From Moorena producens (GTDB lineage: Bacteria > Cyanobacteriota > Cyanobacteriia > Cyanobacteriales > Coleofasciculaceae), in the NCBI RefSeq assembly GCF_965240435.1, contig NZ_CBDEKO010000003.1: 64,000 nucleotides of DNA. One strand, given 5' to 3'. Of the stretch, positions 1,276 to 48,050 are shown one piece after another. The first letter of the stretch is position 1. Every line of letters starts with the position of its first letter. Both the position numbers and the translations under genes were made by a program. The notes beneath the pieces are model-generated. The model ran no database searches. It was not told where the DNA came from and saw only the letters and a program-made list of their open reading frames with translations.

Positions 1276-2376
1276 TTACCTCCGAGATGAATGTATGGCT
1301 TCAAAAAATGCTTTAACGCCAGCAGCAGGACCATCGGGATGATCCATAATGCCAGTTCCAGCATTAAGAATAACCTCTTGTCCGTAATCTCCTACAACCT
1401 TAGGCACAATCCCGGCATGAATGCCAGCGGAGGGGATAGGAAATACATTACGCGATCGCAAACTATCTCGAATTCGCTTTTCCTCCTCTGGGTCAAAGGG
1501 TAAACTACCATAATGGGCGGGATATAGCACCGCATCTGCCCCACCATGAGCCATCAGGGTTCCCAACACCACTGAGTAAGCCATCCCGTGGTTAGGGGCT
1601 CCACAGAGTGCTCCTGCTAAGGCCGGATGGGCAAAAATCGGTACATTAATCTCTGGATCAGCAGCTAGGGCTTCTAGGACAGAGAAACCGTAGGTCAAGA
1701 CATTCAGCAGCAGGGCATTTGCACCTTCTTTAACCAAGGTATGAGCTTTCTCAAGCAATTTGTCAGCCGAACCAGTTACATTAACGGCATAGAGTACGGT
1801 GCGCCCAGTTTGCTGTTTTATTTCATCGAGTACCTTACGGCAGACTTCTAGACGTTTCAGGGTTGGTGCTATCTCCAAATCCCCCAGAATCTCATCATCT
1901 TTAATAATGTCAAGTCCAGCTCCAGCAACCTCTTGTAAAATTTTCCCATGGTCTTCCGCTGAGAGTCCCAACGCTGGCTTAAAAATTGCCATAATCAGGG
2001 GACGGTCAACTACTCCTAGTCTTTCCCGAATCCCGGTAATTCCGAATTTGGGATGCCTACCGTAGTGTTCTGGCAAGCGCACTGCCATGACTTTAGCTGG
2101 TCCTGCCATGGAGTATTTACCAAAAATCATGGTTAGTAGAGTAGGGATATCGTTTTCCACATTAGCTTCAGGAAAACGGATGGTAGCCAAACCAGAACCA
2201 TCAGGGTTAATGACACCTTGAACAACAGTACCAAGATGGGAGCGAAACACATTTTCGAGATGGGCAAAACGAGCATTCCAGGTGCCTGCGGTTTGCCCAA
2301 CAGCAATCACTTTCGCTTGTTTTTCGACATCAACACCGCGAGGAAAGCGGTAGTCAACTTCAATGGACATATTCAA
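1276..2376 (-). CDS. mtnW: RuBisCO-like protein (form IV RLP) / 2,3-diketo-5-methylthiopentyl-1-phosphate enolase
   Basis: 366 aa with the RuBisCO large-subunit core motif GAGLDIIKDDE (compare GGLDFTKDDE). It lacks a RuBisCO small-subunit partner and sits in the mtn cluster. It is intact. Confidence 0.8.
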   Translation of the reverse strand: MNMSIEVDYRFPRGVDVEKQAKVIAVGQTAGTWNARFAHLENVFRSHLGTVVQGVINPDGSGLATIRFPEANVENDIPTLLTMIFGKYSMAGPAKVMAVRLPEHYGRHPKFGITGIRERLGVVDRPLIMAIFKPALGLSAEDHGKILQEVAGAGLDIIKDDEILGDLEIAPTLKRLEVCRKVLDEIKQQTGRTVLYAVNVTGSADKLLEKAHTLVKEGANALLLNVLTYGFSVLEALAADPEINVPIFAHPALAGALCGAPNHGMAYSVVLGTLMAHGGADAVLYPAHYGSLPFDPEEEKRIRDSLRSRNVFPIPSAGIHAGIVPKVVGDYGQEVILNAGTGIMDHPDGPAAGVKAFFEAIHSSRR

Positions 2377-2398
2377 TAAGTTATGAACTGGGATATTC

Positions 2399-3398
2399 TC
2401 AAACAGCTACTAACGGCTTCATCCGAATTTCCGTACCCGTGTATACCGGAATCCAGCCTTCAGTAGTGATCAAGTAGCGCACAGCTTTAACCCGTCGTGA
2501 TGGTGTCAGATAAAACCAATGTTCAGTATTCGCTGGGACATTAATGTACTCCTGAGGCTGCACACTCAACTCCATTTGGCTGCCATCAGGACGTACAAAC
2601 CCAAAAACCCCAACTCCTGCAAATATGTAGCGCACTTCATCGTCAGTATGGTAGTGACAATCCGTGAAGTACCCCAACCTGCTTAGCTGAGGTTGGGGCA
2701 AACCATTCTCAGTTCAATCAGGGACGGTCTTATTCGTCTTCAGGGCTTCCCGCTTCATCCGCCAATGCCTCAACCAGCGAACTGGAATTGGTCTTACTCA
2801 GCGTCCACAGGCAGACATCCGCCTTCCGCAGACGTATAACTTTTACGACAGACTTACCATGGAATTACAGCTCAATGGCTAACCAGCTGGGGCAAGTCTC
2901 TTCCCTGAGCTCCGCTAGTACTTTGTATACCTAATAGGTCATTAACAACGCGCTTGATATTTAGACGTTTTTTTAGGTAGCCTTTTAGTCGGTCAGGCGG
3001 GTCAGCAACCATCTTCATTATAACCTGAATCCTTTTGAGTTGCAAGTTATCGTTTCGCTATCCATCCCCACCTTGGAAGAAGGTGGGGATGAATAGCGAA
3101 TTTTGTTTCCTTTGGAAAGGAGCTTATCAAGATTAGGTATGTCTGGGTAAAGAACGATTAAGTCACGGGATTGATAGCCAGCGGTTTGCTTAAGTTGTTC
3201 AAAGTAGCTATCTAAAGCTTTCAGTACTTTCTCCTTTTCAATATCACTGAGGGTGTCTTGCTCTAGAAGGCGGTGAATTTCTGGGTTGTCCCCTACAGAC
3301 CAGTGATTTAGCTGAATCTTCAGAGGCGCTAATTCTTGGGCAATATCACTTAGCTCGGTATAGGTTGTACCATCTTCAAGTCGCAAAACCGCCATCAT
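2399..3398 (-). pseudogene. mtnD: Acireductone dioxygenase (cupin), split into an N-terminal ORF (3018..3398) and a C-terminal ORF (2399..2701) by a ~440-bp insertion
   Basis: N-terminal ORF MAVLRLEDGTTYTELSDIAQELAPLKIQ...YPDIPNLDKLL parallels B. subtilis MtnD up to the LDELL position, then diverges and stops. The C-terminal ORF starts at TTG and carries the ARD metal motif HYHTDDEVRYIFAGVGVFGF plus the cupin C-terminus TEGWIPVY. Confidence 0.6.
2676..3116. mobile_element. MITE-like, hairpin-ended, non-coding insertion inside mtnD
   Basis: The sequence between the two mtnD homology blocks has no ORF. A perfect hairpin CATCCCCACCTT-cttcc-AAGGTGGGGATG lies near one end (3056-3084). A second hairpin CCCCAACCT-cagctaagc-AGGTTGGGG lies at the other (2668-2694). 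The boundaries are approximate. Confidence 0.35.
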
Positions 3399-3639
3399 GT
3401 ACCTCCTGTTGGCTGTTCGATCTCCAAAGCCCTATATTATAATATTAAGCATTCATCTAGGTCAACCCACACCAGCCATCCAAACAGTATTATTAGGTAT
3501 CAAAAGGCATAAAACCCTTCCATAAAGGCTGTTTTAGAATAAAGTTCGCCCAGTTTTCCTCAGAAAGGTTAACATAAATTAATATAAGAAGCTAAATTCT
3601 ATATTTGCCACATCCTCGAATCTATGGAGGTAACAACGA

Positions 3640-5481: not shown

Positions 5482-5737
5482 CACAAGGCGATTTGGGCAA
5501 TCACCTAGGTAAATACAATGGTGAATACAATAGCCTCTAGCTATTAATCATCCTTAACAGGATACAGCAACAGGACAGTGTAACTAAGCACTGTCCTGTA
5601 TTATTTTGAGATTAAATCTTAAACAAGCATAACGATATAATTATTTCTGTTAAAAATTCCATAAGCTAATTTAAATAATAAGTCAGGGGATCCTATAATC
5701 CGACTGATTTTATTTGTGATAGTATAATCAAACCAAA

Positions 5738-5818
5738 GCTAGGGGTGCCTGAGCAACCAGGCTGAGATTACACCCTTAGAACCTGAGTCCGGTTAATACC
5801 GGCGGAGGGAAGCTGTGA
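5738..5818 (+). promoter_or_regulatory. TPP (thiamine pyrophosphate) riboswitch, THI element
   Basis: AGGGGTGCCTGAGCAACCAGGCTGAGATTACACCCTTAGAACCTGAGTCCGGTTAATACCGGCGGAGGGAAG carries the THI-box hallmarks (GGGGTGCC, CTGAGA, ACCTGA-CCGG-TAATACC). It sits directly 5' of thiC. A TATAAT lies at 5723-5728. Confidence 0.85.
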
Positions 5819-7207
<1,389 letters not shown>

Positions 7208-33559: not shown

Positions 33560-35160
33560 TTTATTATTGTGTACAGATTTATCACGCTGATGGAACTATA
33601 GTAATCGTGACGCTCCTACACTCTCCTAACGGGTGAGTGTAGGCTTCTAGCACTCCTTAGAGCTACTAGAACTTGCTTCAAGGTACTATTAGTTAGAGAA
33701 CTATCAACAACAGGATTCCCTCTACGCCGTTTTATAGTGGGGAACACGCCCAGCCCCACTCGTTTTAGGTTGATTGCGGCATTGATATCGCGATCGACCA
33801 TCAGCATTTCTTGCTCATCCCAATACTCGCGGATAGAGCAGTCAGTAAATACAAACTCGTCTCGATAGCTCAACAGTTGAGAGGTATAGACAGGGTTACA
33901 CTTTTTCGTTACTGCTCCAGCTTTTCCAGCTATGTAGGCCAGTATCTCAAAGAACTGTCCAAACCCTGCATCCGACCAAGACTTGTTTAATCCCGATTTT
34001 GCGGACTGTCCATTAGGCAAATATCCACCATTAGTATCTGGCTTGGGTTTATTTCGTTTCTTTAAACCAGAAAGGTTCAAATTTTCATAATAGAAAACTT
34101 TTTTTCCGGTTCTAACCAGGAGATGAGCTGTTTTATAGGCATGATCCTTTCGGCTCCTAGCGATCCGTTGATGTATTCTCCCTTCACGCGATTGCAGCTT
34201 CCTCCGAGCTTTACTCCCTTTTTTTCTGGCATTCTTTTTGGTTTCTACCTTTTTGATAACAGCCTGATTTTTGCGGTAAGACTTAAGTGAGGGTAGCTTA
34301 GTATTTTCAGATGTCGCCAGATAATCATCTCCGTACAGGACTGCATCCAATCCCATGGTATTATTCCAAGTAGGAGTAACACTTTCTGGTTTAAAAGTTG
34401 GGACTGTAGGATCCTCTAAACATAAGGTCGTGTACCAACCATCGGCTTTTTTGGTTATTAGGATATTTTTGAGTTTAAACCCGTCAGGTAACGGACGATG
34501 GAGTCGGACTTTAACCCACCCTTTGAGCTTTGTTATCTTCAGCCATATCCATTTATTCTCGATTCTGGCTACAGTAAAAGAGCCTTTACCTTCTATTTTT
34601 AAAGTTCTGTATCTAGCTTGATTTTTGAATCGAGGTTTTCCGCTACGAGTACCCGTTTTATCGCCCTTGATGAATCGATTGAAAGCTAGGTCTGCTCTTT
34701 TACATACGTCCTGTAAAGTATTTGCCGGAACTCGGGTAAAGTCCAGCAATTCCCATGAGTGGACAACTGTTACCAAATCTTTTTTCCAGATTGGCAGAAG
34801 CTTTTTTTGACTAAAGTAACTGGGATTATCTCTAAGCTCTGGGAGGTAAGTAATCAACGGACAAGAATTAACACCAGTACGGTTTTCATTCCACCACCGC
34901 CAGCGATCGCCTAACTGCCAGTTATACCAGTAACGACAAATTCGTAGCCAATCGTTTAGTTGTAATTTTTGTTGAGTAGTTGGATCAGCTCGGTATTGGT
35001 AGTTGAGCAGTATAACAATCACCTCTTGGCTTTTATTGCGCTTTCATATATATAGATAATAACAATCTTTCCGAAAAGTTTCAGCATCTGTGTTTACTCC
35101 CATAAAAAGCTTTTATGATTTACTTATGCCCGCGTTCCAGCTGAACTCCTGCAACTGCTT
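33560..35160 (-). mobile_element. IS200/IS605-family non-autonomous element (tnpB only, no tnpA)
   Basis: A single TnpB ORF wedged between the CHAT gene stop (35163) and the start of the 159-aa gene (33556). A hairpin CCTACACTC-tcctaacgg-GTGAGTGTAGG sits at the tnpB stop, which is a typical omega-RNA / right-end position. Confidence 0.65.
33616..35022 (-). CDS. tnpB: TnpB (IS200/IS605 OrfB, RuvC-like RNA-guided nuclease family)
   Basis: 468 aa. RuvC-I (GLDAVLY), RuvC-II (YYENLN) and RuvC-III (DRDINAAINL) are present. The zinc-ribbon position reads TSQLLSYRDEFVFTDCSIREY, so the canonical CxxC...CxxC is lost. Confidence 0.85.
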   Translation of the reverse strand: MIVILLNYQYRADPTTQQKLQLNDWLRICRYWYNWQLGDRWRWWNENRTGVNSCPLITYLPELRDNPSYFSQKKLLPIWKKDLVTVVHSWELLDFTRVPANTLQDVCKRADLAFNRFIKGDKTGTRSGKPRFKNQARYRTLKIEGKGSFTVARIENKWIWLKITKLKGWVKVRLHRPLPDGFKLKNILITKKADGWYTTLCLEDPTVPTFKPESVTPTWNNTMGLDAVLYGDDYLATSENTKLPSLKSYRKNQAVIKKVETKKNARKKGSKARRKLQSREGRIHQRIARSRKDHAYKTAHLLVRTGKKVFYYENLNLSGLKKRNKPKPDTNGGYLPNGQSAKSGLNKSWSDAGFGQFFEILAYIAGKAGAVTKKCNPVYTSQLLSYRDEFVFTDCSIREYWDEQEMLMVDRDINAAINLKRVGLGVFPTIKRRRGNPVVDSSLTNSTLKQVLVALRSARSLHSPVRRV

Positions 35161-46439: not shown

Positions 46440-48050
46440 TCACTTCGTTGATCAATCCAGTCATGAAGCTTCCACCACCTGGCTATCGCCGTTCGCGTAG
46501 CGTGGCGATAGCCAGGTGGTGGTGTCTTATACTAACTTATAACTACCCCTAGTCCATAAGTCACACAAGCAAGCCCAGCTTCTAGGCGGTCGTCGAGATC
46601 TTTTGCTGGAACGACCCTCACTGTCATTTCTGCGAGTGAGTTTAAACACACCTCTAGCACCGATGTTGTAAGCGCCGTTTAAGTCTGCATTAAACCGCTT
46701 ACCTGAAGGGAAGGTTGCCAAAGAGTATTTTTTAGAATTTCTCTTAACCGTACCAGAGCCATCAAAAGCCAATTTTGAAGTATAAGCCGCAACGACTTCT
46801 ATCACTTTTCCACCCAATTCAGCCCATTTCATTTCTGTGAAGTCGCGGATTTTTGCCTTGAGCCATCCGTGGAATCTTTGTTTTAAATTAGACCGCTTTC
46901 GTCCACCTTTTGGCTTCCACCCTTTAAGATTCTCGAATACAATGGCTTCCGAGTTGAACTTTTCAGCAATTTCAACAATCCCCTTGGAAACAATATGGCC
47001 AATTTGGTTATTGATTCTTTGGCATTTTTGATAAGTTTTGGAGCAAAAACCTTTATGTAGTTTTCCTCCTTTTCCCATCGTCTTCGATGCTCTTGCTGAT
47101 ACGGACTTTAGTCGTTTGTCCCTGCGGTCTATGTCTCTTCCAAGATGAATAAAATCACGATGGATTACAGTGCCACTATGGGTTACAACTGCTACGGTAG
47201 CGGTAGTATTAATCCCTAAATCTACCGCAGTTATGTTAGCCTCTGGCTTGCGTTTTTCTGGTTTGCAAGTAAACGGAACAGACAGATGACAGTACCTATC
47301 GTTAAAAATCAACGAAGGGGACATCATTTTGTTTGTAGCTATCTTATGACGCTCTCTTAGTCCAGTTATTTGAACTGTAGTCCAAACCCAATCCTTGCCG
47401 TTAAAAACTTTGATTTCGACTTGATCAAAGCCATGTAGTTTATAGCATTGACCCTTGTACAGAGCTGGATAGCAGCCAGTATCAGCGTTTAACCTTGGTG
47501 GCTTGCTATCTTTTCTTTTTCGGACACCAGACTGCCATTCACGGTATCGAGTCACATAACTACTAACCTGCCCAGCGGCAAAGGCGATTGCTGATCGGCG
47601 ATAATAACTGGGAAATTTATAAAAAGCTTTATTGAATTGAGGGTATTTAATTAAGGCTCGCTTGGCCGTCTTATGCATCAGACGCTCGACAGCAGGAGTT
47701 AACTGATCTGCTGTTAAACAACCTAACTCAGACCAATGAGTGTAAATCACACCAAGCAAGTACCGACAAGCGCGGCGATAAACCTTAACCGTTTCCCCAA
47801 ATAGTAGTTTTTGCTCGGAAGTTGGGTTAAGTCGCCACTTGTCTGTTCTTATGACCTTGGTCGGTGTTTTCACGCTTTCTAATAAACTCGTTTATAGTTA
47901 ATATTTTAGCTCACAAAAGGTAATACGGCAATCAAGTAATTAATGTTCCAGGTTTTAAAGTTGGTATCAGCGTGGAGTAACCCCCACCTGAACCTTCGCG
48001 CAGCGTGGCCGTAGGCCAGGTGGGGGAATGCGTCTCACGGCTTGTTCAAG
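46440..48050 (-). mobile_element. IS200/IS605-family non-autonomous element (tnpB only), with subterminal hairpins at both ends
   Basis: Right-end hairpin CACCACCTGGCTATCGCC-gttcgcgtagcgt-GGCGATAGCCAGGTGGTG at 46462-46512. Left-end hairpin CCCCCACCTG...CAGGTGGGGG with a similar TTCGCGCAGCGTGGC loop at 47978-48030. Confidence 0.7.
46527..47873 (-). CDS. tnpB: TnpB (IS200/IS605 OrfB family)
   Basis: 448 aa. RuvC-I AVDLGI, RuvC-II IVFENL, RuvC-III NADLNGAYNIG. The zinc-finger position (YTSKLAFDGSGTVKRN...SLATFPSGKRF) has no cysteines. Confidence 0.85.
   Translation of the reverse strand: MKTPTKVIRTDKWRLNPTSEQKLLFGETVKVYRRACRYLLGVIYTHWSELGCLTADQLTPAVERLMHKTAKRALIKYPQFNKAFYKFPSYYRRSAIAFAAGQVSSYVTRYREWQSGVRKRKDSKPPRLNADTGCYPALYKGQCYKLHGFDQVEIKVFNGKDWVWTTVQITGLRERHKIATNKMMSPSLIFNDRYCHLSVPFTCKPEKRKPEANITAVDLGINTTATVAVVTHSGTVIHRDFIHLGRDIDRRDKRLKSVSARASKTMGKGGKLHKGFCSKTYQKCQRINNQIGHIVSKGIVEIAEKFNSEAIVFENLKGWKPKGGRKRSNLKQRFHGWLKAKIRDFTEMKWAELGGKVIEVVAAYTSKLAFDGSGTVKRNSKKYSLATFPSGKRFNADLNGAYNIGARGVFKLTRRNDSEGRSSKRSRRPPRSWACLCDLWTRGSYKLV

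Follow-up and report, generated by a model that had tools for sequence, protein, structure and literature searches.

Insertion sequences (IS) of the IS200/IS605 family are known to obey a target rule that lies in the flank of the left end (LE), and one group of IS605 relatives, the IStrons, are able to fuse with group I introns. The closest described systems, for the locus considered here, are the palindrome-associated transposable elements (PATEs): they often encode omega-RNAs on which TnpB acts in trans (Meers et al. 2023, PMC10055086), and the terms of that work, transposon-adjacent motif (TAM) for the target and transposon-encoded motif (TEM), are adopted in what follows. Our subject is an insert of 442 nt that splits mtnD, the acireductone dioxygenase gene, in a 64,000-nt stretch of Moorena producens DNA (contig NZ_CBDEKO010000003.1; the whole of this stretch is called the window below). 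Very probably it is a protein-less, PATE-like derivative of an IS200/IS605 element, probably equipped with a guide-RNA module, and not an intron.

The likeness to PATEs, among them the omega-RNA-bearing PATE-like elements of Geobacillus stearothermophilus (PMC10055086), is considerable. Neither has a protein gene, a target-site duplication or terminal inverted repeats; both have subterminal hairpins at the two ends (asymmetric ones in the present case) and a fixed flank and tip, which here are TTTAA, the TAM, and TTCAC, the TEM; both keep a right-end (RE) RNA region, and for both mobilisation in trans is presumed. Like PATEs, too, the element has dispersed copies. It differs from the G. stearothermophilus elements in its cyanobacterial lineage (Moorena/Coleofasciculaceae) and in the sequences of its TAM and TEM, and from known PATEs at large in the unusual length of its conserved core (~300 nt) and in having a conserved extended -10 promoter of its own. 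The copy in the window departs further from the known PATEs: it lies inside a gene, it has lost its TAM, and its parent element was not found in the loci fetched. The kind, an IS200/IS605 PATE, is already known and the member is new; nothing in it should be unexpected to specialists.

An insert of 442 nt and its ends

What fixes the ends of the insert is the empty site. Five intact Moorena mtnD alleles (L001, L002, L037, L039 and L040; L numbers designate the loci fetched) read TCC AAA TTTAA|G GAT TGT, where the window has TCC AAA GGAAA CAAAATTCGC...GGGGTACTTCAC G GAT TGT at the same junction. Filled and empty sites accordingly compare as AAA GGAAA[442 nt]G GAT and AAA TTTAA|G GAT, with no target duplication, as an earlier, sequence-only reading of the window had held. 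That reading placed the ends elsewhere; the element proper is set at 3105..2664 (Table 1) because of the family copies and the five empty sites, and the profile of the family matches the window over 3107..2664 (nhmmer, E = 3.9e-129). On the minus strand the mtnD reading frame picks up again around 2668/2663. The length had been taken for a multiple of 3, which it is not, because the two coding parts of mtnD lie in different frames: 442 nt is 1 mod 3. An intein had been discounted from the outset, and is ruled out by this length together with stops in all frames.

That the intervening sequence has no open reading frame (ORF) worth the name was also seen correctly: what it offers are spurious-looking ORFs, all of 57 aa or less, whose frames are not kept from copy to copy. 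Queries with TnpA and TnpB against the element family returned noise only (tblastn), and the interior therefore contains no recognisable tnpB remnant at the protein level. The insert is present once in the 64-kb window; it has no BLAST match among PLSDB plasmids, and a scan of viral_contigs for the element gave none.

Both hairpins that had been proposed are real. The left one is longer than was thought: its 21-nt arms (3100-3080 and 3074-3054) are 95% complementary and include a perfect 12-bp core, CATCCCCACCTT/AAGGTGGGGATG, and a C-G to U-A compensatory change occurs at the foot of the stem. The right one shows A-U to G-C covariation in one copy (L003) and its position equals that of the RE hairpins of tnpB-bearing relatives; it is not embedded in resumed coding sequence, as had been supposed, since 8 nt of element, TACTTCAC, come after it. 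The apparent in-frame Phe-Thr codons TTC AC(G) found at this point are the element's own TTCAC tip plus G, which replace TTTAA plus G. The two ends (CAAAATT... and ...TACTTCAC) do not form an inverted repeat, and folding of the insert as a whole beats that of shuffled versions (z = -3.85).

(A technical note: a mirror-image placement of the boundaries, in which the element would run GGAAAC...GGGGTAC and sit 5' of a native TTCAC, was considered and rejected because the five empty sites read TTTAA and not TTCAC, because Thr at position 98 is found in 0 of 105 MtnD homologues, and because the placement contradicts the LE-flank target rule; it also needs more changes.)

The structure of the ends bears on the suggestion that the insert is a conventional miniature inverted-repeat transposable element (MITE) moved by a DDE transposase, comparable to the cyanobacterial Nezha-type elements, or else a repeat of the repetitive extragenic palindrome (REP) or bacterial interspersed mosaic element (BIME) type. 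Being small, non-coding and multi-copy in relatives, it might pass for either at first sight, but terminal inverted repeats and target-site duplication are both absent, the subterminal hairpins are asymmetric and homologous to IS605-type left and right ends, and the element is far longer than REP units. The suggestion is scarcely credible.

Table 1. Features of the mtnD locus, and of the tnpB-bearing IS elsewhere in the window, in window coordinates
Feature	Position	Strand	Basis or remark
mtnD C-terminal fragment (G GAT TGT CAC ... stop), without an in-frame start codon of its own	2399..2663	-	
442-nt non-autonomous IS200/IS605-family element (PATE-like), CAAAATTCGC... to ...GGGGTACTTCAC	2664..3105	-	family alignment; nhmmer; no ORF
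Element-terminal motif TACTTCAC, 8 nt after the RE hairpin (transposon-encoded motif, putative right-end cleavage site)	2664..2671	-	
Conserved structured core, candidate ~300-350-nt omega-RNA-like transcript ending at the right end	2664..3010	-	
RE subterminal hairpin CCCCAACCT/AGGTTGGGG, arms 2698-2690 and 2680-2672	2672..2698	-	
Promoter-like site TTGCAA, 17 nt, TATAAT (10/12 matches)	3017..3045	-	
LE subterminal hairpin, 21-nt arms, 5-nt loop	3054..3100	-	
Mutated target motif (TAM), GGAAA instead of TTTAA (Phe97 codon + AA)	3106..3110	-	
mtnD N-terminal fragment (codons 1-96, end ...LLSK)	3111..3398	-	translation; gap-free alignment to 184-aa ARD proteins; Pfam ARD
tnpB-only IS, 448-aa TnpB (OrfB_IS605 + Cas12f1-like_TNB), RE ...GGTGGAAGCTTCAT	46463..48044	-	LE flank TTGAA 48045-48049

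Family copies and IS605-type relatives

Because members of the family are numerous and dispersed and share a conserved TTTAA flank, the insert is not a lone sequence with unconserved ends, the case in which the sequence-only reading was to be given up. At least 10 other copies, 70-90% identical, were recovered from 5 Moorena genomes and 2 metagenomes: 6 by scanning a genome collection with the hairpin and 4 by scanning metagenomes with an internal block. Among the 8 whose left end is intact (a count that leaves out the truncated L009 and also L024, whose LE hairpin a nested insert has broken up), the left flank is TTTAA in 7 and ATTAA in 1; the tip GGGGTACTTCAC, with its TTCAC end and invariant terminal motif, closes 10 of 10 full copies. 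In one metagenome, copies at two different sites (L034 and L036) show 100% identity along 387 nt (TTTAA and the 382 nt after it), and this identity breaks off exactly past TTCAC, i.e., at the ends of the element. Of the 8 other copies whose two ends are complete, each occupies an intergenic site or the end of a gene, at its stop codon; TTTAA contains TAA on either strand. Both ends of the window insert thus belong to this family, with its target motif and its boundaries, and the family is dispersed and has been mobile recently.

Three copies (L013 6442-7003, L020 3670-4228 and L004 5803-6439) have a 108-nt element, TTTGAAGTTACCG...GGTTTCGTCTCCGGG, nested in them after GCTCAGGG. Its central ~60 nt, between inverted repeats, have in L004 the orientation opposite to that in L013 and L020, and in L024 (~1290-1392) the left hairpin is interrupted by a related insert. 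Another hairpin element, very small and either mobile or invertible, may be involved here.

The left hairpin leads to relatives that carry genes. It is homologous to the left end of ~1.8-kb tnpA+tnpB elements in Microseira wollei (L026, L027, L030), in which a Y1 tnpA (Y1_Tnp, PF01797, E = 8e-39) stands divergent from tnpB (OrfB_IS605 + Cas12f1-like TNB); that the Microseira hairpin is a left end follows from its adjoining tnpA. The right ends of these elements consist of a hairpin and then TAGTTCAT. Coleofasciculus, which belongs to the same family as Moorena, has sister elements (L041-L044) with the left flank TTTCAA and the right end ...GGTCTGGGTAGTTCAT. Left-end matches to the profile of the Moorena family (nhmmer) have E = 1e-7 to 1e-9 in Microseira, Phormidium and Floridaenema and E = 0.004 in Coleofasciculus; the match of this profile to the Coleofasciculus right end is weak (E = 0.013).

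What the insert has in common with the IS605-type elements of Microseira and Coleofasciculus can be listed: 1) the LE hairpin, TCCCCACC..GGTGGGGA+GGATAGCG, is shared by homology; 2) the layout of the right end, a hairpin followed by TA(C/G)TTCA(C/T), is common to the element and its tnpB-bearing relatives, with the motif GATGAAGCG..GAAAC upstream in both; 3) the LE flanks of the relatives are likewise T-rich with an AA end (TTGAA, TAGAA, TTCAA). The relatives differ in that they are 1.8 kb long, encode TnpA and TnpB, and have interiors otherwise unrelated to that of the 442-nt element. The assignment to the IS200/IS605-derived palindrome-associated elements, first made on the look of the hairpins, is upheld by these comparisons: both ends match, or share the architecture of, tnpA(Y1)+tnpB elements.

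An element with tnpB only is also found in the window itself, at 46.4-48.0 kb. Its end hairpins do carry CCACCACCTGG and CCCCCACCTG, as had been noted, and its inferred ends read TTGAA|CAAGCC...hairpin and hairpin+AAGCTTCAT|. It resembles the insert in that layout (TTGAA|C...hairpin on the left, hairpin+AAGCTTCAT on the right) and in C-rich stems of the CCACCTG type; it is unlike the insert in the sequences and loops of its hairpins, and no similarity of the interiors was detected. The connection that had been drawn between the two holds for shared architecture and fails for parentage, the interiors having nothing detectable in common: the tnpB-only IS is a relative by architecture and not a demonstrated parent, helper or supplier of TnpB. 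Its hairpin loops carry a GTTCGCGTAGCGTGGC-type repeat, and the same repeat extends the right-hairpin loops in L013 and L020. A second TnpB-like coding remnant lies at ~33913-34818 (-) of the window, with 26% identity to Microseira TnpB over ~300 aa (tblastn E = 4e-9).

When a TnpA of the Microseira clade was sought in Moorena, none of the best 120 matches was a protein bearing the Moorena name; nearest were the Coleofasciculus elements, whose ends are related but different. The Moorena tnpA+tnpB element of L009 and the tnpB of L024 were tried as kin and set aside, their ends being different. A second PATE lineage came to light among the relatives: a gene-less IS605 derivative of ~445 nt in Phormidium sp. 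R1S1 (L005 3189-3628) and Floridaenema flaviceps (L017 2870-3314), 96% identical across genera, with the same left hairpin, a recognisable tnpB-3'/right-end segment and the TAGTTCAT tip. One of the Coleofasciculus loci (L041, C. chthonoplastes DS989841.1, 1-2167) has the tnpB ORF (OrfB_IS605, Cas12f1-like_TNB) of an IS605-type element directly adjoining the gene for a 600-aa reverse transcriptase of group II introns (RVT_N, RVT_1, GIIM, HNH); such an intron may have invaded the IS.

Promoter and structured core

Some 75 nt inside the left end the other copies conserve an extended -10 sequence, TGnTAnAAT. The window copy shows TATAAT but lacks the TG in front of it, and a 7-nt insertion of its own yields a TTGCAA -35 sequence at 17-nt spacing. 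From this promoter the core runs, in the LE-to-RE sense, to TTCAC. It contains long invariant blocks in copies that are just 70-90% identical, and differences in length are confined to the loops of predicted helices. RNAalifold, applied from the promoter to the right tip, gives 14 helices with 77 pairs, 94% of cells being paired; 10 compensatory pairs are observed, compared with 3.7+-1.3 in shuffled alignments (0/500) and 0-3 when the partners are slid. The structure of the core is conserved.

Is the core an omega-RNA? It is probably one, used in trans by TnpB. The motif GATGAAGCG-N(1-6)-GAA[AG]C has 9 occurrences in 715 kb, each of them 29-106 nt upstream of a TA[CG]TTCA[CT] tip; in autonomous elements it sits inside the 3' end of tnpB, and in PATEs at the equivalent place, which in the element is 81 nt from the tip. 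One can also suppose that the element is indeed a PATE and that its core is something other than a guide RNA for TnpB: a structure serving transposition as single-stranded DNA, a cassette with an outward-reading promoter, or another small RNA. Counts of structure are blind to whether RNA or single-stranded DNA does the folding, the cognate TnpB was not found, and a single short motif links the core to the 3' ends of tnpB. Yet the conserved extended -10 is directed into the core, toward the right end; the core stops exactly at the right end, as the scaffolds of omega-RNAs do; the predicted helices contain many G-U pairs, and conserved ones, which suits RNA more than DNA; and PATEs that bear omega-RNAs are on record (PMC10055086). 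Such an alternative function is unlikely, though by no means negligible.

In the balance against a PATE-like element with a guide-RNA module, the following must be placed. What supports homology of its interior with omega-RNAs is a single short motif, together with position and structure: all that the core region shares with tnpB-bearing relatives is GATGAAGCG..GAAAC and the RE hairpin, and for the 5' half of the core, made up of the post-promoter blocks, no kin could be detected among tnpB-bearing elements, a circumstance that speaks equally for the alternative just considered. The covariation comes from a small set, of 9 related sequences, and expression is predicted only. Rfam misses even the right end of the genuine tnpB IS of the window; because it fails there too, it is uninformative on omega-RNA. 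The window lacks a tnpA as well as any tnpB whose ends match, and an autonomous parent with the same interior is absent from all loci fetched. Finally, the left flank in the window is GGAAA and not TTTAA, so that an extra event of three adjacent substitutions is needed.

Granted a PATE-like element with a guide-RNA module, a course of events can be proposed. A Y1 TnpA encoded elsewhere would recognise the two subterminal hairpins and would make its two cuts behind the TTTAA of the flank and behind the TTCAC that terminates the element; the element would have entered a single-stranded target 3' of TTTAA within mtnD (AAA TTT AA|G GAT) by the "peel-and-paste" route, which leaves no duplication. 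The promoter just inside the left end would drive synthesis of a structured RNA of ~300 nt, the 3' part of which may have descended from the tnpB-3'/right-end region. The guide of this putative omega-RNA would be the DNA just beyond the right end (GGATTGTCAC...), and TnpB, acting in trans with the omega-RNA, would re-cut emptied TTTAA sites, which would keep the element in place. The flanking TTTAA would have been changed to GGAAA later, in the window strain. With the TAM lost, excision of the window copy by TnpA should therefore be blocked; and even if excision occurred, the change of TTT to GGA at Phe97 would leave Gly in its place.

A bolder proposition, and a rather doubtful one, is that the family is a "guide-only" hyperparasite: two TnpA-recognised hairpins, a promoter of its own and an enlarged, omega-like RNA of ~300 nt, with TnpA borrowed for moving and TnpB for homing. 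Half of the conserved RNA consists of the post-promoter blocks (e.g., GACCCGCCTGACTGACTAAAAGGCTACC); nothing in known tnpB elements corresponds to these, and they could serve some further purpose not yet described.

The fate of mtnD

mtnD (Pfam ARD) lies on the minus strand as the first gene of a methionine-salvage cluster, together with genes for a RuBisCO-like protein, a HAD phosphatase and an aldolase. The host is a filamentous cyanobacterium of the Moorena type: the closest match to MtnD is from Moorena sp. (91% identity), and the FtsH protein of the window is identical in M. bouillonii PNG, M. producens PAL-8-15-08-1 and two metagenome-assembled Moorena genomes. Looking up the truncated N-terminal ORF of mtnD and three other proteins of the window by exact sequence gave no entry. 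The spliced MtnD protein aligns without gaps with acireductone dioxygenases of 184 aa.

The insert has killed mtnD, and the gene has been drifting since. In the comparison with M. bouillonii, 17 codons of mtnD differ nonsynonymously and 9 synonymously; the corresponding numbers elsewhere are 9/18 for the RuBisCO-like protein, 8/15 for the HAD phosphatase, 0/11 for FtsH and 1/28 for ThiC. Of the nucleotide changes that mtnD has accumulated on the branch of the window alone, 15 are nonsynonymous and 2 synonymous; they hit Phe97, which is invariant in 105 homologues, and Glu115, which is Glu in 8 aligned relatives. Constraint on mtnD is relaxed, and on that account the gene is to be regarded as a pseudogene.

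These numbers also enter into the remaining question: could mtnD still function because the insert splices itself out of the mRNA, as an intron of group I or group II or as a mini-IStron? Excising 442 nt keeps the frame, and excising 3110..2669 would even bring back Phe97; the insert is highly structured; and IStrons provide a precedent for IS605 relatives fused with group I introns. An IStron such as CdISt1 is, like the insert, of IS605 type, situated inside a coding gene and provided with a structured RNA interior. Against this, the insert differs from IStrons in that a group I core is undetected, in having the wrong nucleotides at the splice sites and in the decay of its host gene. In particular: 1) no intron or ribozyme family is found by Rfam at E <= 10, the matches within 2300-3500 being chance ones, of miRNA/snoRNA type and on the hairpin only, which disposes, together with the junctions, of the group I intron that the sequence-only reading had entertained; 2) the last nucleotide is A in the 5' exon (AAA or GGAAA) and C in the insert, where group I introns want U and G; 3) the insert starts GGAAAC/CAAAAU and not GUGYG, and neither domain V nor D1-D4 finds a match; 4) the intergenic or gene-end location of the 8 other copies with complete ends is not that of an intron; 5) the in-frame Phe codon on which an intron might draw is accounted for by the element's TTCAC end standing in place of TTTAA; 6) an intact, spliced gene sits ill with the excess of nonsynonymous changes in mtnD and with the changes at Phe97 and Glu115. 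An intron is highly improbable.

The decay of mtnD has some peculiar features. GGAAA (3110..3106) forms with 3118-3114 a perfect inverted repeat, TTTCC-AAA-GGAAA, and the change that produced it is one of three strain-specific multi-nucleotide changes in the gene (minus strand): GCC to AAG at 3128-3126, TTT to GGA at 3110-3108 and GAA to GTT at 2613-2612. The first, 15 nt upstream of the second, creates CTT-GAT-AAG; the third, ~50 nt downstream of the element, creates GTTGGGGT, a copy of an arm of the right hairpin. One may speculate that all three were templated by neighbouring sequence, through quasi-palindrome strand switching. As a side possibility, the three would be hairpin-driven and tied to the single-strand lifestyle of the element, each perfecting a local repeat or palindrome and one of them destroying the TAM.

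Loss of mtnD is not confined to the window strain. In M. producens PAL-8-15-08-1 (L038, CP017599.1, 2218-3073) the gene has been destroyed independently: ~61 N-terminal codons are left, followed by a different hairpin, CAAAATTCATCCCACAC(T)CA...TGAGGTGTGGGATGAATTTT, the start of which resembles the left end of the window element, and by a replacement segment of ~855 bp with a 159-aa ORF on the opposite strand. Since mtnD is broken there as well, ARD-based methionine salvage seems dispensable in the lineage. The genes 3' of mtnD in the window, for the RuBisCO-like protein and the HAD phosphatase (368-2376, -), have nonsynonymous/synonymous ratios of ~0.5, with FtsH and ThiC near 0; selection on the whole salvage operon may have weakened in the window strain. 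On the other side of mtnD, a thiamine pyrophosphate (TPP) riboswitch (RF00059, 71.7 bits) at 5731-5827 (+), directly 5' of thiC (5834-7207), is the sole Rfam family of the window to reach the gathering score.

For annotation, mtnD of the window strain is a pseudogene interrupted by a mobile element: not two genes, and not a gene containing an intron. The family to which this element belongs is a natural, protein-less IS200/IS605 derivative that has conserved a promoter and a structured right-end RNA across a range of 70-90% identity; conservation of the two fits the idea of guide RNAs as selected cargo, and the family offers TTTAA as a defined TAM, TTCAC as a defined TEM and a scaffold for use with the TnpBs of cyanobacteria.

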